A stretch of 50,865 nt of DNA from a virus: IMG/VR virus record IMGVR_UViG_3300045988_090630; one strand, written 5' to 3'. The position numbers were made by a program, and so were the translations under genes. The notes below the pieces were generated by a model. The model had not been told where the DNA came from. It saw nothing but the letters and a program-made list of their open reading frames with translations, and did not search any database. The number at the start of each line of letters is the position of its first letter. The first letter of the stretch is position 1. Shown piece by piece: positions 2,863 through 48,585 of the stretch.

Positions 2863-3036
2863 ATGACCAAGTATACTAAGTTCGAGGCAATCTTCAGAAA
2901 CGAGACGCTGGTGTTCACCGACAGAGATCCGAAGTTCAGAAACCGGCTGGATGTGTACAATTACATCTGCGCAGAGCGGCTCGGCAAGAAGTACGGAAAG
3001 TTCATCCGCATCAACGAATCCACTGTTTGCTACTAA
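2863..3036 (+). CDS. Small hypothetical protein (57 aa, MTKYTKFEAIF...), absent from the ORF track
   Basis: ATG at 2863 sits in the same position relative to the cassette as in copies A and B. Hand translation is open to TAA at 3034-3036. Confidence 0.55.
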   Translation: MTKYTKFEAIFRNETLVFTDRDPKFRNRLDVYNYICAERLGKKYGKFIRINESTVCY

Positions 3037-3052
3037 GAAGGAGGTCTGAATC

Positions 3053-3229
3053 GTGAAACGCTATAAGGTGTACGTCTACAACACGGTTGATAAGTTCTGG
3101 GACTGCTACGAGGTCCTTGCCAAGGACCCGGTGGATGCCCGGAACGTGGCAGTGCAGCGGTTGATCGATGAGACCGGGCACGGTCTGGATGTCTACGAAG
3201 TGACCGACGTGTGTGAGATCAAAGGCTAA
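3053..3229 (+). CDS. Small hypothetical protein (58 aa, GTG start), absent from the ORF track
   Basis: GAAGGAGG (3037-3044) lies 8 nt before GTG 3053. Open to TAA at 3227-3229. Confidence 0.5.
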   Translation: MKRYKVYVYNTVDKFWDCYEVLAKDPVDARNVAVQRLIDETGHGLDVYEVTDVCEIKG

Positions 3230-3242
3230 GGGGGGCAGCGAA

Positions 3243-3461
3243 ATGATGACCAGTACGTTCAACAAGATCTATGCCAACGCCCAGAACATGAACATCGAGA
3301 CCAGCGAGTGGTTTAACCGGGCGGGGTTCTTCTGGTGCCAATGCACCGAGAAGCAGCTGCAGAAGATGCGGCTGCTTCTCCGGGCGCAGGGCTGCAAGAC
3401 CATCATACGGGATGACGGTGAGTGGTTCGTCCTGAAGAACGGAAATATCATTAAAGCATAA
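3243..3461 (+). CDS. Hypothetical protein (72 aa)
   Basis: Internal ATG at 3243 of track ORF 3213..3461, after AAGGGGGG. Confidence 0.6.
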   Translation: MMTSTFNKIYANAQNMNIETSEWFNRAGFFWCQCTEKQLQKMRLLLRAQGCKTIIRDDGEWFVLKNGNIIKA

Positions 3462-3473
3462 GGAGACAGTTCG

Positions 3474-3701
3474 ATGAAGAAGATCGCAAATAAATCTTTT
3501 CCTTTGTTCTACCTGAAAGAGAGTGAGCTGGAGGAAAAATACCGCACCAAAGAGGGCTACACCTATATGATCGTCAACGGATACGAGGTTCGCTGGCCTA
3601 GCTGGGAGAACCTCATGGCTGCGCTCGAAGATCACACCGCAGAGTTCTTCGTTCCGGGTGGAACGTGGGAGCCGCTGGGCGATGAAAAGCCGGATTTTTA
3701 A
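3474..3701 (+). CDS. Hypothetical protein (75 aa)
   Basis: Track ORF with AAGGAGA RBS. Confidence 0.6.
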   Translation: MKKIANKSFPLFYLKESELEEKYRTKEGYTYMIVNGYEVRWPSWENLMAALEDHTAEFFVPGGTWEPLGDEKPDF

Positions 3702-3714
3702 GGAGAGCCAGATT

Positions 3715-3945
3715 ATGAAGCTGCTGGATCTGTTGAACGTGATCGAGGACGACACCCCGATCTGGATTTACATTGATCATCCGTTTCCGTGTAAAAAGGA
3801 GGGGCTGTTTTTCGGGGCGGTGCAGTTCGCTGCGGAGAACGATTCCGAGTGGGAAGGCTACCGTGTGGTGCTGACTTTCCCGGAGTTGTATGAGCCTCTC
3901 GGCGGGGTTGTTGGTATGTCGATTGTTGTTGTGAAGGAGGAATGA
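3715..3945 (+). CDS. Hypothetical protein (76 aa)
   Basis: Internal ATG at 3715 (MKLLDLLNV...) after AAGGAGAG. Confidence 0.6.
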   Translation: MKLLDLLNVIEDDTPIWIYIDHPFPCKKEGLFFGAVQFAAENDSEWEGYRVVLTFPELYEPLGGVVGMSIVVVKEE

Positions 3946-7894: not shown

Positions 7895-9008
7895 GGTTCT
7901 TTTTCCTCCGATCTAATTTTGAGATGATTTCTTTGAGCTTGCCGATCTTCACGTTCGGTTTGATCCTGCGCTTGAAGCACTCGTAGGTGTCGGTGCAGGA
8001 AAACCAGCCCATGTAGCTCAGCATGGCTGCGATGTTGTGGCGGCAGTAGCTACGCCCTGCCTCTTTCGCCTTGTGGAGGTGCCGGGCCGTCTGTGTGGCC
8101 TTGAGCATGATCCGCTTGCGAATGATGGTCTTGTCCCGGTAAAATACAAAGCCCATAAAATCCAGAGGTCGGCCCATTGCTTTCCGCTTGCCCTGATAGA
8201 AGAACTTGCAGACCTGCCTGTTCTTCTTCAGCTTCAAACGGAACCGCTGCCCCAGCATCTTTCGGATCTGAACGTCGGCATTGTGCAGGGCTTTCTTGGC
8301 CGCTGCATAAATTGTCACGTCGTCCATGTACCGCACGAGTTTGTCGAGGCCGAGAGTCTCGGTTATCAACTTGTCGAGCGGCTCCAGCAGGTAGTTGGCC
8401 AGCCATTGCGAAATGTAGAACCCCAGCGGGATGCCCTTTTTGAACTCCCGGAGACACAGCCAGATGACGTGGAGAAACCATTCATCCTTGATCCTGATTG
8501 CAAGCTCCCGCATCAAAACGTCCAGCCGGATGCTGTCGTAAAAATGCCGGATGTCAACTTTCAGGAAGTTCCGGGTCCCTTTCGGGTCTGAACGGAGCCA
8601 CTTCTCAATCCTCCGCTTGGCGTAATGTGCGCCGCGTTTCGGGAAGCTGCCGCAGCTGTACTTGTATGCGGTGCCGGTGATGATCGGCTCCAACACCAGC
8701 ACGATGATGTGGTGCAGCCATTGTTCGTGGATCTCCGGCTCAAAGATCTTCCGAATCTTACCGTGTTCGTAGATGATCTTCGGGGTGTGCTTATGGGGCT
8801 TGAATCCGAGTTTCGGGTTCTGGACTTCTACTCCATCGGGTTTGGTGTTCAAAATCATATCGTGCATCTTCTGAACTTCGTCGTCCAGATGGGCATCGAT
8901 ATACTTTACCTCCGCTCGGCGTGTTTTGCCTTTCCGAAGGTTCTTGTATGCCTTGCGGATTGTTTTCTCCGAAAGCATTGCTTGATACAGATACTTGTAC
9001 TCTTTCAA
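7854..9008 (-). CDS. DGR-type reverse transcriptase (384 aa)
   Basis: IPLGFYISQWLAN ([ILV]GxxxSQ signature) and VRYMDDVTIY (YxDD). Lies 223 nt downstream of the TR. Apparent TTG start. Confidence 0.9.
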   Translation of the reverse strand: MKEYKYLYQAMLSEKTIRKAYKNLRKGKTRRAEVKYIDAHLDDEVQKMHDMILNTKPDGVEVQNPKLGFKPHKHTPKIIYEHGKIRKIFEPEIHEQWLHHIIVLVLEPIITGTAYKYSCGSFPKRGAHYAKRRIEKWLRSDPKGTRNFLKVDIRHFYDSIRLDVLMRELAIRIKDEWFLHVIWLCLREFKKGIPLGFYISQWLANYLLEPLDKLITETLGLDKLVRYMDDVTIYAAAKKALHNADVQIRKMLGQRFRLKLKKNRQVCKFFYQGKRKAMGRPLDFMGFVFYRDKTIIRKRIMLKATQTARHLHKAKEAGRSYCRHNIAAMLSYMGWFSCTDTYECFKRRIKPNVKIGKLKEIISKLDRRKKNHETLGTRSMLQSA

Positions 9009-9231
9009 CTTGTACGCCTATAAGATATTCTTTCTTCTATCTCCTGCACCCGGCAGGTGCGACCGCTTTACCGGGTGCCCTGTATCGGACCTATTTCCAC
9101 TCATCTTTCCAGTTATGGCGAGTAAGCCGTATTTCAACGGTCAGCGGTGTAGGCTGCGCCCATCATGGCGCAGTGCATAAAATGCAGAGTGCGGCGGCTT
9201 TGGCGTAGGATGTAGATTGCAGATAGAATCA
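9009..9231 (-). ncRNA. Non-coding spacer between TR and RT, expected to be part of the DGR template RNA
   Basis: No credible ORF. Two hairpins: CTGCGCC / GGCGCAG (9154-9173) and GCACCCGG / CCGGGTGC (9046-9078). Confidence 0.5.
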
Positions 9232-9337
9232 GGCCGAGCCGATGTTCCAGTTCGCGTTGCCAGCGTCATTGTTCAGATTGATGCACCGAGGCCCCGTATT
9301 GGTGCCATTGTTGCAATTACCGAACCGTAGGCCCACC
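9232..9337 (-). repeat. DGR template repeat (TR), 106 bp
   Basis: Aligns ungapped with 9489-9594. All 15 mismatches are at TR adenines in the coding sense. In the VR frame the variable sites are AAY codons. Confidence 0.92.
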
Positions 9338-9403
9338 GAAGGTGACGCCGCCGCACTCCCCTTATTTATTTTTCAAAAATGAATAAGCTGTATTTGCTCC
9401 ACT

Positions 9404-9432
9404 GGGGGAGTTGCGCTTTGCAGCGCACCCCC
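9404..9432 (-). promoter_or_regulatory. GC-rich hairpin just downstream of VR and the target stop codon
   Basis: GGGGG..TGCGC / GCGCA CCCCC. A second element, CCCC-CTGC-GGGG, lies at about 9436-9448. Confidence 0.5.
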
Positions 9433-9452
9433 AGACCCCCCTGCGGGGCGGT

Positions 9453-10700
9453 TTACACCGCCACGCCTACAGGTGGTAACAGGAGAATGGCCGAGCCGAT
9501 GTACCAGTCCGCGTAGCCAGCGTCAACGTCCAGATCGAGGCACCGAGGCCCCGTACCGGTGCCATCGGAGCAAGCACCGAACCGTAGGCCCACCTTTGTG
9601 CCTTCGGCATGGTAATAGACACCGTCGCAGCCGCCGAGGACGGTACTGCCGTTGAACGGCTCGATTGCAACGGCTCCGAAACCGGGCACCGTGGTGTAGT
9701 GGGAGGGGTAGTCCCATTTGTCCTGATCGGTGGTCGGCAGGACGATGCCGGTGTTGTGGTAGGTCGCCCCGGTCACGTCGTAGGTGTAGTTCTTGCTGAC
9801 CTTGTAGTCGCCGTTCACCAGCAGGGTGTACGGATCGCGCATCCACTGCTGGTAGCTGCCCAGCACGATGGAGTGGAAGATCTTATTCAGGCTCTTCTGG
9901 TCGGTGGTGGCGTAGAACTGGCCACCGCCCACCACGGCGTTCTGCTTGACACCCATGGTCGGGGTCAGGCTCTGGTCGTAGCCGGAGCAGTTGCCGTATC
10001 CGAACACGTCCTGAATGTTGGAGTTCTTGCCGAACATGAGCAGCAGGTCTGCGATGGTCTCGACGATTGCGCCGCCGAGGAACTTGGCACGGTTGCCGAC
10101 CGCATCGATGGCGGTTTTCTGGGCGGCTGTGGTCTTGTTGTAGTCGGGCTGGAGACCGGACAGGGAGCGCATCTTGTCCTCGACGATGGAGCCGTAGAAC
10201 ATGGGCAGCCATACGCCCTCCAGTTCCTTGTTGTCCGGGTCGATGAAACCGACAGGCTCGTAACCCTCCCGCTTGGTCAGACTGAACTTCACGATGCGAT
10301 CATCGCCGACGACGGTCTCGTTCTTGTAGATCTTCTGGAGCCAGCTGAATGCGCCGCCGTCGTAGGAGGTGTTGGCCACGTCCGAAGCGGAGCCGTCGCT
10401 GTACTTTTTGGAGTAGTCGTTGTCCTGAAGGCGGTAGTCCGGGGTGCCGTCCGAACGGACCATGTAGGGCTTGTTGGCTTCCAGAATCTCAAAACCAGCC
10501 CAGTCGTTCAGGGAGATGCTGCCGTTGGTGTTGCGGCTCACCGGGGTGAAGTTCTTATTCAGACCGATGTACTCGATGCGCTGCGTCGGGCTGAGAATGT
10601 TCATGTGTTCGATGAAGCCGTAGATCGGATCGACCGCCAGAATATTGTAGATCTTGTCCAGCGTTTCCTTGTCGGCGATATAGACTTTTTCTCCTGCCAT
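9453..10700 (-). CDS. Tail fibre / receptor-binding protein, the DGR target, with a C-terminal variable region
   Basis: Sits in the tail-fibre position after the baseplate genes. The last ~50 aa (…LRFGACSDGTGTGPRCLDLDVDAGYADWYIGSA…) are encoded by the VR. Confidence 0.85.
   Translation of the reverse strand: MAGEKVYIADKETLDKIYNILAVDPIYGFIEHMNILSPTQRIEYIGLNKNFTPVSRNTNGSISLNDWAGFEILEANKPYMVRSDGTPDYRLQDNDYSKKYSDGSASDVANTSYDGGAFSWLQKIYKNETVVGDDRIVKFSLTKREGYEPVGFIDPDNKELEGVWLPMFYGSIVEDKMRSLSGLQPDYNKTTAAQKTAIDAVGNRAKFLGGAIVETIADLLLMFGKNSNIQDVFGYGNCSGYDQSLTPTMGVKQNAVVGGGQFYATTDQKSLNKIFHSIVLGSYQQWMRDPYTLLVNGDYKVSKNYTYDVTGATYHNTGIVLPTTDQDKWDYPSHYTTVPGFGAVAIEPFNGSTVLGGCDGVYYHAEGTKVGLRFGACSDGTGTGPRCLDLDVDAGYADWYIGSAILLLPPVGVAV
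9489..9594 (-). repeat. DGR variable repeat (VR), 106 bp, inside the target gene 3' end
   Basis: 91 of 106 positions identical to the TR. Differences occur only opposite TR adenines. Confidence 0.92.
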
Positions 10701-42140: not shown

Positions 42141-42583
42141 TATTTCTTTCCTCCCTTGGTGGCCCGGCTGTTCTCACGGCGGCGGGTGATGTCGTAGGTG
42201 TCGAAGATGCTGATGCACTTGGCGAGGTCCTCGCTCAGGCCGTCGTTTTCCTCGACGTATGCCTTGATGGTGGACTGGAGGGTGCGGGTGTTCACGCTCT
42301 CCACGATGATGTCGCCGAGACCCTCGCCCCGGAGGGTTTCAAAGAAATTGATGCCCTCGCTGGCCAGCTCCGCTTCGGACTTCTTGCTGTAGATGGTCTT
42401 GGGGGTCAGGGTGAACTTGAAGCCGCCGACCGAGATCGAGGGGCAGTCATCGTCGATCATCTGCTGCGAGATGTTCGCTTTGGCTTCCTCGATCAGGGCG
42501 TTGTTGGCCTTGACCTCATCGGCCAGTTCTTCCTTGCGCTCCAGAAGGCTCTGGTAATCGCGCACCATGTCTAACAGTGTCAT
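42140..42583 (-). CDS. Hypothetical protein with an N-terminal coiled coil (Gp157-like?)
   Basis: Track ORF of 147 aa. The family assignment is tentative. Confidence 0.5.
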   Translation of the reverse strand: MTLLDMVRDYQSLLERKEELADEVKANNALIEEAKANISQQMIDDDCPSISVGGFKFTLTPKTIYSKKSEAELASEGINFFETLRGEGLGDIIVESVNTRTLQSTIKAYVEENDGLSEDLAKCISIFDTYDITRRRENSRATKGGKK

Positions 42584-43155
42584 TTGTGTTCTTCCTTTCT
42601 GTTCAGGCGTTCCTTTTCGTATTCCCGCCAGAGGTTTTCGGCGGCGATCTTGCCCATAAAATGTTTATAGGCGAAATCCTTAGTTTTCAGGGGAGCGTTG
42701 TCCACCGGGCTGGGGAAGTCGATGGTGAACTTGTCCTCCGGGAAAATTACCCGGAGCCATTTAAGCTGGTAGCTTTCGCTCCGCTTGAGGCCGTGGCAGG
42801 TCCAGTAGTCCCGGTTGTTGGCGGTGGCCGCTGCTGCATCATTCCTGCCGTAGGTCGTCATCGCCATGAGCAGCTTCTGGAAACGCTTCTTGCTGCCACA
42901 GCGGAGGGCGTTGTCCGGGTAGATGTAAATGTCGAGGCGTTCCAGATCGGCACCGTCTGCGGAGCAGGTCGGTACAAGCCTTTCGATGTGGGCTGCGCAG
43001 AGGTGGAAGGGAGGAATATTAACCTCACGGTTAACTTGATCATATTCCGAGGTCGTCGTGACGCAGATCTCCCTGTCGCCGATCGGCACATGGATGGTGG
43101 TCTGGATCTCCACATGGTGAAGATCAGGAATGGTTACGGTAGGCTTTTCACTCAT
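42580..43155 (-). CDS. Hypothetical protein (191 aa)
   Basis: Internal ATG at 43155 (MSEKPTVTIP...) after AAAGGAGAG. Confidence 0.55.
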   Translation of the reverse strand: MSEKPTVTIPDLHHVEIQTTIHVPIGDREICVTTTSEYDQVNREVNIPPFHLCAAHIERLVPTCSADGADLERLDIYIYPDNALRCGSKKRFQKLLMAMTTYGRNDAAAATANNRDYWTCHGLKRSESYQLKWLRVIFPEDKFTIDFPSPVDNAPLKTKDFAYKHFMGKIAAENLWREYEKERLNRKEEHK

Positions 43156-43279
43156 TTTTGTATCTCTCCTTTTGCTCTTGCTCTGCCCGGTCGTCAGCTT
43201 CACCAGCTTTCCAGCAGAGAAGGTATCCAAAGACTTCGATGGCTACGAGGACTGCGATGGTCAGGATTGCTCCGAGCAT
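43148..43279 (-). CDS. Small membrane protein (43 aa), absent from the ORF track
   Basis: GGGAGGTG lies 8 nt before ATG 43279. Hand translation: MLGAILTIAVLVAIEVFGYLLCWKAGEADDRAEQEQKERYKNE. Confidence 0.45.
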   Translation of the reverse strand: MLGAILTIAVLVAIEVFGYLLCWKAGEADDRAEQEQKERYKNE

Positions 43280-43671
43280 TGACGACGCACCTCCCATTCT
43301 GCGCGGTCATTTGCACACTGGGTGCTGCGAAAAACCAACGGGTCGTTGTCAATGATGACGTTTCGGTCATCCCAGTATTCGTTTGCTCCGACTTTTCGAG
43401 GGTCCGTTCTGTAGGCTTTGCGCCACTCCGGGAGGTTCTCGTTGACCGCATCGAACTTCAGACCCCACTCTGCGCAAGCGGCGACGGCCTTTTCCAGCGA
43501 CCGCCCCTCCCGGCAGGTCCAGAGAATCAGCTTTGCGCCGTTGCTCTGTTCTTTCAGGGCTTGATGGATTGTGTCCCAGTTCGGATCTCCAATGTCGGGG
43601 TAGGCGTTCTGGCAGAGGATGCCATCAAAGTCGATTGCGATGGCATAGGGAATTTGCGAAGAATCAACCAT
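43261..43671 (-). CDS. HAD-like hydrolase (136 aa)
   Basis: IAIDFDGIL (DxDG motif). Internal ATG at 43671 after AAAGGA. Confidence 0.55.
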   Translation of the reverse strand: MVDSSQIPYAIAIDFDGILCQNAYPDIGDPNWDTIHQALKEQSNGAKLILWTCREGRSLEKAVAACAEWGLKFDAVNENLPEWRKAYRTDPRKVGANEYWDDRNVIIDNDPLVFRSTQCANDRAEWEVRRQCSEQS

Positions 43672-43888
43672 TGCTCTCATCCTTTCTTTTCTTTTTCGGG
43701 GTTGCCCGCTTCCGGGCGGGTGGTTTATCCTCAAGCTGCCCGCCGGGTGGCTTTCCCTCGGCGATAGCTTTGAGCAATTTTTGGTAGGCATCGTACACCG
43801 CCAGTTGCTGTGCCATACGCTGATACCGAGCCAGCTCTTCCGGGGTGCCGTCTAAAACCGGGGTGCCGTCCACGATGTAGATTTTCAA
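43664..43888 (-). CDS. Hypothetical protein (74 aa) with a basic C-terminus
   Basis: Track ORF. ATGA overlap with the helicase stop. Confidence 0.5.
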   Translation of the reverse strand: MKIYIVDGTPVLDGTPEELARYQRMAQQLAVYDAYQKLLKAIAEGKPPGGQLEDKPPARKRATPKKKRKDESNG

Positions 43889-45249
43889 AAGAACTGCCTC
43901 CAGTCATCGACCACCGTTTTAGCGAGATCCTCTTTTTTGCCGAGGGATTTGAGAATCGTGCTGTCGACAGTATTGTCGGCGACGATGTGTATGTAGGTGC
44001 AGACGTTACGCTGTCCGATGCGGTGGATGCGGGCGAGGCTCTGCGAGTAAGTGGCGTAGTTGAATGTGACGCTGTAGTAGACGCAGGTGTCGGCTGCGGT
44101 CAGGGTGATGCCGGTGCCCGCCGTGTCGATCTGGCCGACGAGAACCATCGTGGAGGGGTCTTTCTGGAACTGCTGGACGATGTCGCCCCGCTGCTCTTTC
44201 GGGATGGCTCCGTAAATGGCCACCGTTTTCATGCCGCTCTTTCCGATGATGTTCTCCGACCTTTTGATGATCTCCAAGACCTCCGGGATGAACCGGGCGA
44301 AGATCACCAATTTCTTTTTGCCCTCCAGAACGTAGTCTTGGATAATGTCCGAGAGGGCATCGAGCTTCCCGGTGCTGACCAGCTCCGGCTTGGCTGCATC
44401 GTCGGCGACGAGGAAGCCGCCAGTGAACTGCTGCAGCCGCAGGAGTTTGGTCAGAACCGTGGTGGCGGTGATCTTCCCGCCGTTGTCCAACTCGGTGAAG
44501 CTGTCCCGCCGCAGACGGTCGTAGATGGCCCGCTCTTTGGCCGAGAGAATGATGCTCCGGGTCTGGAACGTCTGCTCCGGCAAGTCCAGGGCTTCCTCTT
44601 TTGTCACCCGGTAGGCGATGGAATGCTCTTTGCGGATGAGTTCGTCGAGGTCCTTGTACTGGACGATCTGCTTGCGATTGAAGCCGCCCATCACGGCGTA
44701 GCGGTTGCGGAAGGCGTAGAAGTTGGTGCCGAAGATGGTTGGGTCGAGGAAGCGGTACTGACTGAAAATGTCCACCGCCTCGTTCTGCACCGGGGTGCCG
44801 GAGAGAATCAGCTTGTACCGGGCCTTGTCGCCCAGTTGGTGCATTGACTTGCTCTGGGCTGCATCGTGGGTCTTGATGCGCTGGCTCTCGTCCGCGATGA
44901 TCAGGTCGGCATCGTACTCCAGCAGCTTTTCAAAGATGCCATCCCGCCACGTCGATTCGTAGTTGATGACGGCCACCTTGAGGCTCTGGAAGGGAAACGC
45001 TTCGAGATCGGCGAGGGCCTTGAGACGTTGGGGTTTTGTGCCCAGCAGCGTCTTGACCGTGTACCTGAAGTCGGCATAGTCTGCAAATTCTTTCGGCCAG
45101 ACGGCGCAGACGGAGGTGGGGGCTACGATCAGAACCCGCTTGATCTTGCCGAGTTTGTACCCGGCCCCGGTGACGGCGATGGCGGTCAGGGTCTTGCCGC
45201 AGCCCATCTCAAAAAGGAAACCGAAACCTTTACCCATCGAATCCACCAC
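43885..45249 (-). CDS. SNF2-family helicase, C-terminal piece (from Walker A onward)
   Basis: Begins MVDSMGKGFGFLFEMGCGKT. Also IADESQRIK, LILSGTPVQN, TAGTGITLT and QSLARIHRIGQ. Lacks the upstream Q-motif segment. Confidence 0.85.
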   Translation of the reverse strand: MVDSMGKGFGFLFEMGCGKTLTAIAVTGAGYKLGKIKRVLIVAPTSVCAVWPKEFADYADFRYTVKTLLGTKPQRLKALADLEAFPFQSLKVAVINYESTWRDGIFEKLLEYDADLIIADESQRIKTHDAAQSKSMHQLGDKARYKLILSGTPVQNEAVDIFSQYRFLDPTIFGTNFYAFRNRYAVMGGFNRKQIVQYKDLDELIRKEHSIAYRVTKEEALDLPEQTFQTRSIILSAKERAIYDRLRRDSFTELDNGGKITATTVLTKLLRLQQFTGGFLVADDAAKPELVSTGKLDALSDIIQDYVLEGKKKLVIFARFIPEVLEIIKRSENIIGKSGMKTVAIYGAIPKEQRGDIVQQFQKDPSTMVLVGQIDTAGTGITLTAADTCVYYSVTFNYATYSQSLARIHRIGQRNVCTYIHIVADNTVDSTILKSLGKKEDLAKTVVDDWRQFF

Positions 45250-45493
45250 CCTCTATGAGTTTTCTTACGCCCCGAAGATCTGCGATGCCGTAGTTCCCAT
45301 CTATGCAATGGTGGACTACGTACAGTTCCGGGGAAAGAACCGGGAGCTGCTTTTTCGCTCTATTGTAAAAAAAGGCAGAATCAAGAAGTTCTTTTCGGGC
45401 AGTCTCCGGCTTTTTGCAAGTCGGGAGACCATCGTCGAAAATTGCCCCGCAAAGGCGGCACCTGTAGATCGGCACAAAAAAGTATTCTTTCAC
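45230..45493 (-). CDS. Hypothetical Cys-containing protein (87 aa, GTG start), inside the helicase interruption
   Basis: GTGA overlap with the previous stop. Sequence: YRCRLCG...HHCIDG. Confidence 0.5.
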   Translation of the reverse strand: MKEYFFVPIYRCRLCGAIFDDGLPTCKKPETARKELLDSAFFYNRAKKQLPVLSPELYVVHHCIDGNYGIADLRGVRKLIEGGGFDG

Positions 45494-45753
45494 TGGTTTG
45501 CCGCCGCCTTTCCTGTCCATGCACACTCGCTACACACAAACTTGGCGTTGGGGTAGATCTGCCGGACGAGTTCGGCGTTCCCAGTCTGAAGCCAGCAAGC
45601 CTGACCGCATACCGGGCAGGTCGCCGCTTTCCACTCCGGGTTGCAGGGGTTCGGGACGTTCTTGCGCAGGGGCATGGTGGCGAACACCGGGCGGGTGTCA
45701 TTGGCTGCTGCGGTCGCCGGGGCGATCTTGAGAAATGTTACCTTTCGTCTCAT
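45490..45753 (-). CDS. Hypothetical zinc-ribbon protein (87 aa), inside the helicase interruption
   Basis: ATG 45753 follows GGGAGGTG and overlaps the previous stop (ATGA). Sequence: CPVCG...CSEC. Confidence 0.5.
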   Translation of the reverse strand: MRRKVTFLKIAPATAAANDTRPVFATMPLRKNVPNPCNPEWKAATCPVCGQACWLQTGNAELVRQIYPNAKFVCSECAWTGKAAANQ

Positions 45754-46145
45754 CTGATTGCACCTCCCAGCAGCCGGGTACCGCACCAGTGGCAGTGCGA
45801 GTGGTGCGGGTTCACCCTGTGGTTGCAGTCCGGGCAGTGCCATACGCCGTCCTTTTTGACCGGCTGCGACGGCACCTCGTACTTGGCATGGAGGTTGCCC
45901 CAGTCCTGCAGGAGTTTCTTGCTCTGTGCGATGTAGCTGATTGCCTCGGCCACCGAGAAGCAGTTTTCCTCGCAGAGTTTCTTGATGATCTCGGTTGCTG
46001 CGTTGCAAGCGTCCACGTCGTCCTGCCAGATCTTCTTGTCGGGGTCCTGCTTCCCCTCGCCGGGGAGAAAGGATGCGCTGTTGTCCTTGATGCTGTCGAT
46101 ATGGCAGAGCAGCGAGGACAGGCTCATTTTGTGAATATCGCTCAT
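45750..46145 (-). CDS. Hypothetical protein with a C-terminal zinc ribbon (131 aa), inside the helicase interruption
   Basis: ATGA overlap with the N-terminal helicase piece. Sequence: WHCPDCNHRVNPHHSHCHWCG. Confidence 0.55.
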   Translation of the reverse strand: MSDIHKMSLSSLLCHIDSIKDNSASFLPGEGKQDPDKKIWQDDVDACNAATEIIKKLCEENCFSVAEAISYIAQSKKLLQDWGNLHAKYEVPSQPVKKDGVWHCPDCNHRVNPHHSHCHWCGTRLLGGAIR

Positions 46146-46507
46146 GTTGTGTTTCCTCCGTTCGGGTTAATCCACCCGAAAACTATTGCAGCCATGTTCG
46201 CCCCACGGACTTGATGCCGAAAAAGTTTCATCTTGACCGGGTAGTCCAGAAGCGGCTCCGGGCTGTCGTTCATGCGCTCCTGATCGACGGCGGCTGCCGT
46301 GTCGTGGAGGCTCTGGCGCAGGGCTTCAATGTGGGGCGGCAGATTGACGATGCTGGACAGCTTGTCCAGAAGCTCGATGTCTGCGGTGCCGGAGAGGGTC
46401 TGCGTGGTTTTCGACCACTTCATCTTGCCCCAGCTTTTGATCACCGCAAACTGGACGGTGTCGGCCTCTTTGATGAGCAGGGTGTTTTCTTTCAGGGCCA
46501 TTTTCAT
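46142..46507 (-). CDS. SNF2-family helicase, N-terminal piece (accessory domain plus Q-motif segment)
   Basis: Ends ...DYPVKMKLFRHQVRGANMAAIVFGWINPNGGNTT*. LFRHQ is the segment that normally lies ~25 aa before GxGKT. Confidence 0.65.
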   Translation of the reverse strand: MKMALKENTLLIKEADTVQFAVIKSWGKMKWSKTTQTLSGTADIELLDKLSSIVNLPPHIEALRQSLHDTAAAVDQERMNDSPEPLLDYPVKMKLFRHQVRGANMAAIVFGWINPNGGNTT

Positions 46508-46719
46508 CGATCTGCACCTCCATTCGCTCCCATGTACCGCTTGCGCCCCTTTTCACGGTGCCGGTCCTCATGGTCACGGTGATAAACGCCGAAGTTTCCG
46601 TTCATGGTTCGGTTGTAGGCGTTTTCTGCCTCCAACTCCTGCTTGTATCTCTGGTATCTTTCGCAGGTGTCGTGGCAGATCATGTGGCGAGATTCGCATT
46701 GAAAACAAGGCTTTGTCAT
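46504..46719 (-). CDS. Hypothetical Cys/His-rich protein (71 aa)
   Basis: Track ORF with CFQCESRHMICHDTC. Confidence 0.5.
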   Translation of the reverse strand: MTKPCFQCESRHMICHDTCERYQRYKQELEAENAYNRTMNGNFGVYHRDHEDRHREKGRKRYMGANGGADR

Positions 46720-46967
46720 TTCATGAATTCCTCCGGGGGTTCAAGCAGCGGATACCAACAGTAAAAATTTTCGGGGTTGTCTGCTACGGTGGAATACTGC
46801 CATTCATCGACGCATCCGAATTCTTTGTGAATGGCCAGAATACATCCGTTTCCGTTGGCATCTTCTTTGGTCGGTTTGACCTCCGATGCTTTACGCCAAA
46901 GGGATACAGCGGTAGTCGGTCGGATGACCGGGTTGCCAAGTTCATACATGAATCTAAATCCTCCCAT
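46716..46967 (-). CDS. DUF551-like phage protein
   Basis: C-terminus ...FYCWYPLLEPPEE resembles the DUF551 WxPlPePP ending. Confidence 0.5.
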   Translation of the reverse strand: MGGFRFMYELGNPVIRPTTAVSLWRKASEVKPTKEDANGNGCILAIHKEFGCVDEWQYSTVADNPENFYCWYPLLEPPEEFMK

Positions 46968-47238
46968 CTTTCCAAGCCCGGTATTTTCCGTAGCTCACGC
47001 CCAGCCGATTCGCTTCCCGGACATCGCTTTGAAGAGAATCCTCCGGGGCGTGTTTCGGCTTGGTCCGTTCTACGACCTCCAGCTTGTTGTTCTGAGCCTT
47101 TTTTCGGTCATGCTCGATCTGCCGGATGCGGAGGCAGGAATCGCAGAGTTTCTTGTTGCTGGCAACTCCGACCATCTTCTTTCCGCAGCGGGTGCAGGTC
47201 CGTGTCCATTTAAGGCTTTCGACTTTCGCCACGGTCAA
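46954..47238 (-). CDS. Hypothetical zinc-finger protein (94 aa)
   Basis: CTRCG...CDSC. Confidence 0.5.
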   Translation of the reverse strand: MTVAKVESLKWTRTCTRCGKKMVGVASNKKLCDSCLRIRQIEHDRKKAQNNKLEVVERTKPKHAPEDSLQSDVREANRLGVSYGKYRAWKDGRI

Positions 47239-47998: not shown

Positions 47999-48027
47999 AT
48001 TATATATCGCTCTGCGATGAAAGTCAA
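47999..48027 (-). promoter_or_regulatory. Early leftward promoter (PR-like)
   Basis: On the minus strand: TTGACT (48027-48022), 17-nt spacer, TATAAT (48004-47999). The spacer contains the palindrome ATCGC-TCT-GCGAT (48006-48018). Confidence 0.7.
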
Positions 48028-48047
48028 TAGAAAAGCAAAATTTTTTA

Positions 48048-48076
48048 TTGACTAGGTGATATTTTGATGTTATAAT
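48048..48076 (+). promoter_or_regulatory. Repressor promoter (PRM-like)
   Basis: TTGACT 48048-48053, 17-nt spacer, TATAAT 48071-48076. Confidence 0.7.
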
Positions 48077-48102: not shown

Positions 48103-48585
48103 TTGAACACGAGAATTAAATTCCTGCGCAAAAATTCCGGCTTGACGCAGGAGAAATTCGCAGAGCGAATCGGCCTAAAGCAAAACTCCATCGCCCTGAT
48201 CGAGAGCGGGAAGAGGAACATTTCAGATCAGGCTATTCTCTCCATCTGCCGCGAGTTCGGCGTTCGGGAGGAATGGCTGCGGACTGGGAATGGCGAGATG
48301 TACGCCCCTGCGCCGACCAATGGGCTTGACCTTCTTGCCAAAGAAAAAAAGTTGACGCATGGCGAGTACATTCTCATAGAGAAGTTCGTCGGACTGAATC
48401 CAGAAACAAGAAAACGGATTCTGGATTATATTCAGGAGGTGTCCGCTGCTCTTTCTGCAGACGATATCCCTGCGGACGCTCCTGCTATTGATTGCCGGGA
48501 ATCCGCAGAAAGTCTCCATGCTGAACTGGACCGTCAGCTTGGCATTGAAAAAAAAGAAGCGGTGGACGGGTCCGAAGCCTCTTGA
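48103..48585 (+). CDS. CI-like XRE-family repressor (160 aa, apparent TTG start)
   Basis: LRKNSGLTQEKFAERIGLKQNSIALIESGKRN is HTH-like. Divergent from the early operon. No S24 peptidase motif was recognised. Confidence 0.75.
   Translation: MNTRIKFLRKNSGLTQEKFAERIGLKQNSIALIESGKRNISDQAILSICREFGVREEWLRTGNGEMYAPAPTNGLDLLAKEKKLTHGEYILIEKFVGLNPETRKRILDYIQEVSAALSADDIPADAPAIDCRESAESLHAELDRQLGIEKKEAVDGSEAS

Follow-up and report, generated by a model that had tools for sequence, protein, structure and literature searches.

Background

In Aeromonas phage Aeh1 the ribonucleotide reductase gene is present in pieces (nrdA-a/mobE/nrdA-b), and the halves of the enzyme assemble without splicing (Crona et al. 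2011, PMC3045599). The cut holds one free-standing homing endonuclease gene, and the tails derived from the insertion are essential for the interaction of the halves. Fractured genes combine split inteins with a free-standing endonuclease: replication-related genes, including helicase genes, are broken into two open reading frames (ORFs) around a gene, with an N- and a C-intein half at the break, and protein trans-splicing joins the products again (Dassa et al. 2009, PMC2677866). In addition, hot spots of nuclease and accessory genes are known at the boundaries of genetic exchange in phages (PMC10448857; for mobile elements of the T4 family, PMC2988022). Here we describe a locus in IMG/VR virus record IMGVR_UViG_3300045988_090630, a stretch of 50,865 nucleotides which is referred to as the window. 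The window is a complete relative, in reverse orientation, of the temperate Faecalibacterium prausnitzii phage FP_Epona (NC_047910; Epona below). At positions 43885-46507 it contains five overlapping minus-strand ORFs, p1 to p5, of which p1 and p5 probably encode a SNF2/Rad54-like helicase as two polypeptides, split by an insertion and reassembled non-covalently, with the gap between them now a site for cargo genes.

As in Aeh1, a phage enzyme gene appears to have been cut into two ORFs by inserted DNA with both halves retained. Also in keeping with genes in pieces, p1 and p5 have uninterrupted homologues with which they are collinear, with nothing lost or duplicated. Whereas the restoration of function by two-polypeptide assembly has been shown biochemically for Aeh1 (PMC3045599), here we infer the assembly. 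Unlike Aeh1, the window has no homing endonuclease gene in the interruption, which holds 1 to approximately 7 variable genes among the relatives, endonuclease genes included; the tails at the break correspond to the original loop, and the split is common to more than 100 lineages. The locus resembles the fractured genes (PMC2677866) in that a replication-related gene is broken into two ORFs. However, no intein halves are present at the break between p1 and p5, which excludes a fractured gene of the split-intein type. As in the hot spots described (PMC10448857, PMC2988022), variable HNH endonucleases and methylases are found at one site with conserved flanks and are swapped between near-identical genomes, but those hot spots lie between genes whereas this one lies inside the coding sequence of the catalytic core of an enzyme. 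The split helicase is best described as a variant of the phage genes in pieces which is ancient, widespread and reversible and which lies inside the ATP-binding core. In the literature searched no precedent was found for a split SNF2 or split phage helicase, nor for a superfamily 2 (SF2) helicase divided between Q motif and Walker A, which is an absence of evidence within that literature only. The paper describing Epona does not mention the helicase.

Two ORFs matching one SNF2 helicase

The product of p5 starts with MGKGFGFLFEMGCGKT and contains GCGKT, DESQ, SGTPVQN, TAGTGITLT and QSLARIHRIGQ. Motifs I (GxGKT), II (DExx), III, V and VI of SNF2/Rad54-like helicases are found in this order over its RecA-like lobes, from strand β1 with Walker A through RecA-like lobe 2. 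It matched the DNA helicase family phrog_62 at 1.8e-122 and the Pfam families SNF2-rel_dom at 4.3e-29 and Helicase_C at 1.2e-15. Since the SNF2-rel_dom match runs from profile position 25 to 283 of 290, p5 lacks the start of the SNF2 domain. A Q motif some 25 residues before Walker A is not found on the same chain; the Q segment sits in p1. The ATG at 45237 is more likely to be the start of p5 than the GTG at 45249, and the ATG version is equal in length to the annotated Epona gp15 (450 aa). Residues E10-T18 of p5 are invariant in the helicase alignment, and few DNA windows of p5 are as conserved as its first 45 nt.

The product of p1 ends in VKMKLFRHQVRGANMAAIVFGWINPNGGNTT (also given as LFRHQVRGANMAAIVFGWINPNGGNTT), directly followed by the stop codon. 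The AlphaFold2 (AF2) model of p1, made from its alignment, has a predicted local distance difference test score (pLDDT) of 90.1 and consists of a small α/β domain (residues 1-53), a long helix (58-78), an extended linker and the Q-motif helix (97-109). It ends in a disordered tail of approximately 10 aa, with a pLDDT below 50 for residues 118-121. In an alignment of 30 homologues (60-95% identity) H98, Q99, R101, N104, M105 and G111 are invariant, and across 67 dereplicated loci the Q-motif segment is the most conserved DNA of p1. In total 359 homologues of p1 were found, the best 120 of which are all free-standing and approximately 120 aa long.

The original prediction, which was made from the sequence alone, held that a SNF2 helicase gene is split here between Q motif and Walker A, with the LFRHQ stretch of p1 as the Q-motif segment. 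A p1-family profile, made from the 30-homologue alignment, matched 207 of 1.84 billion representative proteins. Among these were uninterrupted SNF2 helicases, of which residues 1-116 were aligned at E values of about 5e-26, a similarity that is not due to chance. The 572-aa protein P0185 matched the profile at E = 5.9e-26; P0184 and P0180 are variants of it, and P0187 and P0140 were found as well. P0185 is essentially identical to P0270, which is annotated as "DEAD/DEAH box helicase" of Gemmiger formicilis. With blastp, residues 1-118 of p1 matched residues 1-121 of P0185 (40% identity, 3e-29) and residues 6-454 of p5 (numbering of the 454-aa version from the GTG) matched residues 119-563 (60% identity). 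On P0187 the two matches meet at residue 118, and P0140 is likewise collinear. Because the blastp matches on these three proteins abut, the pieces adjoin without loss or duplication. Further fused loci are L146, L160, L162 and L163. The prophage with the fused gene shares the synteny of the replication module with Epona and the window: repressor, small genes, helicase, DUF7307 and DnaG/DUF927 primase.

The best match among solved structures was the SsoRad54-like ATPase 1Z63. Alone, p5 aligned to it with 123.4 bits, starting at chain residue 56. A conceptual fusion of residues 1-111 of p1 with p5 from its ATG aligned with 133.3 bits, starting at chain residue 27 and gapless at the junction, so that the addition of p1 lengthens the alignment by 29 residues and raises it by 9.9 bits. 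In this alignment LFRHQVRGANMAAIVFG of p1 falls on LRPYQIKGFSWMRFMNKLG of 1Z63, and the natural fusion P0185 aligns in the same manner. Compared with 1Z63 and the phrog_62 helicases, p1 and p5 taken together have the full set of motifs in the right order; the differences are that Q motif and Walker A are on separate polypeptides and that there is an extra N-terminal domain of approximately 85 aa, for which no structural relative was detected. The cut is placed in the loop between the Q-motif helix and strand β1 by the p1 model together with the alignments. The comparisons thus support p1 and p5 as the two predicted halves of one SNF2 helicase.

Two observations were made on other proteins matched by the p1 profile. 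P0121 (210 aa) carries the p1-family N-terminal domain in tandem duplicate before one Q-motif segment. The fused helicase of L086 (8001-8891) and L087 (P0187) ends at approximately residue 296, with radical-SAM and reverse-transcriptase genes behind it, as if the prophage had decayed or been rearranged.

Distribution and history of the split

Loci were gathered from IMG/VR using the p1 alignment (80 loci) and from the species genomes of GTDB using the helicase alignment (80 loci). At 125 loci the gene is split at this same loop, with a gap of 290-5217 nt (median 1338), and in none of them are p1 and p5 adjacent without an intervening gene. Against these stand seven fused lineages: the Gemmiger prophage L082-085, L086/087, L088, L146, L160, L162 and L163, with loops of 0 to approximately 20 residues. 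The hosts are Faecalibacterium, other Oscillospiraceae, Lachnospiraceae and related Clostridia. Both p1 and p5 are present in nearly every locus with sufficient flanking sequence, p1 always upstream and in the same operon. Among GenBank phages, Epona alone carries p1 and p2.

In a neighbour-joining tree of the helicase part, rooted at its midpoint, a crown of approximately 120 split loci was separated from a basal set (bootstrap 96/100). The basal set comprises four fused lineages (L163, L160, L162 and L082) and three split ones (L161 and L164-167). Within the crown the fused L146 is sister to the split L141 (bootstrap 100/100), and its loop aligns collinearly with the tails of L141, which points to a secondary re-fusion within the split clade. 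In the solved SNF2 structures that were matched, a single chain holds both the Q-motif region and Walker A, which argues for a fused ancestor. On the simplest reading, this ancestor was followed by a single old fission where the crown begins, by further fissions or re-fusions among the basal lineages and by at least one secondary re-fusion.

According to the original prediction, the idea of a split gene would fail if homologous phages routinely encoded the 121-aa protein as a gene of its own, with helicases that likewise begin just before Walker A. This is in fact what the relatives look like, and yet the split is not refuted by it; what follows is that the split is ancient and has become fixed throughout a large clade, rather than having arisen recently in the genome of the window.

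Organisation of the locus and genome context

Table 1. Positions of the five ORFs and associated features in the window
Feature	Position	Strand	Description	Basis
p1	46142-46507	minus	121 aa; predicted N-terminal SNF2 helicase piece	translated ORF
p2	45750-46145	minus	131 aa; CPDC-x10-CHWC zinc ribbon	translated ORF
p3	45490-45753	minus	87 aa; CPVC...CSEC, two CxxC pairs	translated ORF
p4	45230-45493	minus	GTG start, 87 aa; CRLC + HHC	translated ORF
p5	43885-45237 (ATG) or 43885-45249 (GTG)	minus	450 aa (ATG) or 454 aa (GTG); predicted C-terminal SNF2 piece	
Q-motif segment LFRHQVRGANMAAIVFG	46175-46225	minus	p1 residues 95-111	
Walker A / motif I core GCGKT	45190-45204	minus	p5 residues 12-16 from ATG	read in sequence
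Promoter-like site TTGACT-17-TATAAT	47999-48027	minus	head of early operon	consensus scan, 11/12 matches

Re-reading of the sequence confirmed the ORF positions and the helicase motifs of the five ORFs as originally given (Table 1). That all five are chained by ATGA or GTGA overlaps held for three junctions, with ATGA at p1/p2 and p2/p3 and GTGA at p3/p4, but the p4/p5 junction is an overlap of 8 nt (ATGGGTAA) and not of 4 nt. The coupled ORFs are preceded by Shine-Dalgarno sequences. The chain extends beyond p1-p5, as p1 is overlapped by an upstream ORF (46504-46719, ATGA) and p5 by a downstream ORF (43664-43888, TTGA). From the stop of p1 to the ATG of p5 the spacer is 904 nt, with three genes within. 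All five ORFs belong to an early minus-strand operon, the promoter-like site of which faces the divergent promoter of a CI-like repressor gene; it was called by consensus match and its function is putative. A consensus scan found no minus-strand promoter-like or terminator-like sites between this site and position 43885.

The repressor gene (48103-48585) matches HTH_3/HTH_19. Between the repressor and the early operon, back-to-back near-consensus promoters (TTGACT-17-TATAAT, on both strands) are found at 47999-48076, and this stretch looks like the lysis/lysogeny switch region.

Over positions 176-50821 the window is 91-97.5% identical to Epona, while 1288-2478 and 2866-3716 have no match there. 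Epona gp10-gp15 show the same arrangement as p1-p5 with one more gene between p4 and the helicase, and all of these except the helicase are annotated as hypothetical. Upstream of p1 (46507-46947), the ORF that overlaps it (71 aa, Cys/His-rich) and a second one at 46716-46967 (83 aa) are found in place of Epona gp09; the region just upstream of p1 is another variable spot of the early operon. A further stretch of approximately 560 bp (42612-43171), between the DUF7307 (Gam-like) gene and the next gene, is missing from Epona. The ORF of approximately 190 aa in this stretch (42580-43155) had no Pfam match.

The gap as a site for cargo genes

A gene of the p2 family comes directly after p1 in 93 of the 125 split loci. 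The gaps of the basal split lineages lack it, and a search within 8 kb of three fused helicases (L082, L086 and L088) did not find it either. Because many split loci are without it, p2 is not strictly needed for the split state. Members of the family have a helical N-terminal part and a C-terminal CPxC...CHWCG ribbon. Profile searches on the inserted proteins gave a weak match of p2 to Pfam DUF7575 (E = 2.5e-5, below the curated cut-off) and matches of p3 to phrog_23707 (function unknown, 2.4e-12) and of p4 to phrog_16725 (5.8e-15). The latter begins at residue 5 of p4 and so supports its GTG start at 45493. No Pfam family was found above cut-off for p3, p4 and several other cargo ORFs. The AF2 model of p2, which is of low confidence (pLDDT 65.6), shows three helices and a small β ribbon; it was made from a shallow alignment, as the word-indexed homologue search returned close relatives only.

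The gaps of L121, L133 and L157 each contain two p2-like zinc-ribbon ORFs. In those of L058, L059, L062, L069, L120 and L139 a protein is found which has the N-terminal helical module of p2 (with the motif ...IWxxDxEAL...) and a different, non-zinc C-terminal half, which suggests domain swapping in the p2 family.

The genes p3 and p4 behave differently, and their turnover is recent. Among genomes in which p1, p2 and p5 are at least 93% identical to those of the window, the identity of p3 falls into one of two ranges, 91-100% or 71-75%, and so does that of p4, with 93-99% or 32-42%; an extra gene of approximately 110 aa is found in some of these genomes and not in others. Epona has a divergent p4 allele together with the extra gene (gp14), and its identity to the window resumes exactly at the ATG of p5. 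In L045 a p3 homologue sits downstream of the helicase. Both p3 and p4 are exchangeable cargo. The three zinc-ribbon genes had been proposed to form an inserted unit; of this, the conserved position of p2 as first gene in the gap remains, whereas with p3 and p4 exchangeable the trio is not the cause of the split as a unit.

The gaps of the relatives contain a range of other genes, the counts of which are based on homology searches and not on ORF counts, since ORF calling over-extends in GC-rich cargo. These are C5 DNA methylases (31 loci), sigma-like proteins (22 loci), RNase_T-type exonucleases (15 loci), HNH-family endonucleases (at least 10 loci), N4/N6 methylases (2 loci), and genes found at single loci or groups: PAPS-reductase-like (L112), DUF4406 (the L021 group), DUF7768 (L161), Myb-like (L055) and PcfJ (L045). 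Matches to endonucleases include L117 with phrog_374 (6.4e-68) and L045/L093 with phrog_59 (4.6e-21), and the gap gene of L021/025/027/034 matches NUMOD4 (1.2e-11).

It was proposed earlier that the locus resembles genes in pieces made by a mobile cassette such as a free-standing homing endonuclease gene, while no HNH, GIY-YIG or LAGLIDADG motif was evident in the inserted ORFs. The latter was borne out for p2, p3 and p4 in Pfam, PHROGs and NCBIfam. As to the cassette, the window itself has no such endonuclease gene, and the evidence is indirect: at least 10 relatives have an HNH or NUMOD4 gene in this gap, so that a homing endonuclease gene may plausibly have caused the split by its insertion. 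On either side of the cut the DNA is strongly conserved; in p1 no other stretch is more so, and in p5 few are. This would fit a role of the flanks as endonuclease targets or recombination arms.

Proposed mechanism and alternative explanations

In the mechanism that we propose, foreign DNA would have inserted into a surface loop of the helicase in the ancestor of a large clade of temperate Clostridia phages. The five ORFs would be co-transcribed from the early operon with coupled translation, by which both helicase pieces would be made together. Of these, p1 would provide the N-terminal domain and the Q-motif (adenine-recognition) helix, and p5 everything from strand β1/Walker A onwards; p1 would dock on lobe 1 of p5 via the native interface, with Q99 completing the adenine pocket beside the P-loop. 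Neither RNA nor protein splicing would be involved. Physical reassembly and activity of the two products are suggested by the conservation of both, by their co-occurrence and by the same loop being open in L141 and closed in L146. Recombination between the conserved flanks of the helicase gene would add, remove and exchange cargo, and deletion of the cargo could re-fuse the gene.

A more far-reaching reading joins all of these elements. The loop between Q motif and Walker A would be a dedicated and recurrent landing site for cassettes, with HNH endonucleases homing to Walker-A DNA and the helicase halves acting as recombination arms; p2 would be an assembly or coupling factor, and the SNF2 motor would have two or three components and depend on co-translation with the cargo. 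We regard this combination as rather doubtful.

Several observations weigh against the split helicase and its proposed history. The p1-family profile found no chain among the PDB sequences even at E = 10, and the Pfam SNF2 model still begins at position 25 when p1 and p5 are conceptually fused, be it with their tails or with the tails removed. Because the Pfam and PDB profile searches gave no link between p1 and the helicase, this link is carried by the fused homologues and the pairwise alignments. L067, L072 and L074 have p1, p2 and a C5 methylase but no C-terminal helicase piece in the 4.7-7 kb downstream; they may be degraded prophages. The cargo of the window has no recognisable mobility gene. 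Which of the basal lineages are ancestrally fused is unsettled because the tree has a midpoint root, and the mixture of split and fused loci in the basal set requires that fission or re-fusion took place several times. A side observation on L074 is an IS30-like transposase at 8396-9619.

The lack of profile matches would suit a p1 that is an unrelated, independent protein, with LFRHQ as a chance likeness and p5 as a short helicase working alone. The same applies to the absence of any match of p1 in Pfam, PHROG or NCBIfam models (the last of which gave none for p2-p4 either), to a Foldseek search of the confident p1 model against the PDB, which gave nothing at E ≤0.001, and to p1 being routinely a separate gene in the relatives. 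Yet p1 domain, Q motif and helicase are held collinearly in one ORF by seven lineages, the junction is gapless against a solved SNF2 ATPase, the Q-motif residues are invariant and p1 is always upstream of p5, which makes such independence extremely unlikely; with P0270 on 369 contigs, the fused homologues are unlikely to be assembly chimeras. That the locus is a disrupted pseudogene, with both fragments as decaying remnants, might be expected from an insertion in an ATP-binding core, which is normally inactivating, and decayed relatives do exist (the truncated fused gene of L086, and the three loci without a C-terminal piece). However, the split is found with intact ORFs in 125 loci at 52-99% identity and in the complete annotated genome of Epona, and the catalytic motifs are invariant. 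The ratio of non-synonymous to synonymous substitution rates (dN/dS) was approximately 0.11 for p5 (64 pairs), approximately 0.25 for p1 (1000 pairs, dS 0.2-1.5) and 0.19 for the Q region; because it is low in both pieces, they are not decaying, and we judge a pseudogene to be very improbable.

Rejoining of the pieces into a single chain, by a self-splicing intron, an intein or split intein, translational bypass or DNA excision, is a known solution for interrupted phage and bacterial genes (Aeh1/T4, PMC2988022; split inteins, PMC2677866), but for this locus it is extremely unlikely. Rfam, including group I and II introns, gave no match at E up to 1 on either strand of 43500-47000, and an intron was rejected, as the gap is densely coding and varies in size and content among the loci. 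The ORFs between p1 and p5 are out of frame with the pieces, contain stops and are under purifying selection (dN/dS approximately 0.08 for p2, 0.21 for p3 and approximately 0.09 for p4). The tails beyond the homology, approximately 10 aa in p1 and 1-5 aa in p5, are too short for intein halves. No repeat pairs bracketing 45237 and 46142 were found and no recombinase gene in the insert, by which a skin-like excisable element was rejected too, and a spacer of approximately 900 nt far exceeds known bypass distances. The remaining alternative is that the split state, a Q-motif subunit plus a catalytic subunit, is ancestral and that every fused gene arose secondarily. The far greater number of split than of fused forms would agree with this, as would the clearly secondary fusion in L146 and the root, which is a midpoint root only. 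On the other hand, the Q-motif region and Walker A are contiguous in the matched solved SNF2 chains, four fused lineages are in the basal set opposite the crown, and the complete lack of loci with adjacent cargo-free pieces fits insertion as the cause. We therefore consider an ancestral split improbable, though less so than the other three alternatives, and prefer a helicase that was split by insertion.

Conclusions

The 121-aa "hypothetical protein" (Epona gp10, with hundreds of homologues) should be annotated as an N-terminal helicase subunit, at the strength given above, and p1 and p5 should count as a single gene in gene-family and pangenome pipelines. If the pieces reassemble, this would be, as far as found, the first natural SF2/SNF2 ATPase with its Q element in trans, and it would offer a ready system to probe the contributions of the Q motif and the N-terminal domain to the motor. 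For the phages, the locus shows that an insertion in a catalytic core can be stably tolerated across a very large and abundant group of temperate phages of the human gut, infecting Faecalibacterium, other Oscillospiraceae and Lachnospiraceae, and that such a cut can go on to house cargo such as methylases, nucleases and regulators and can be undone by re-fusion.

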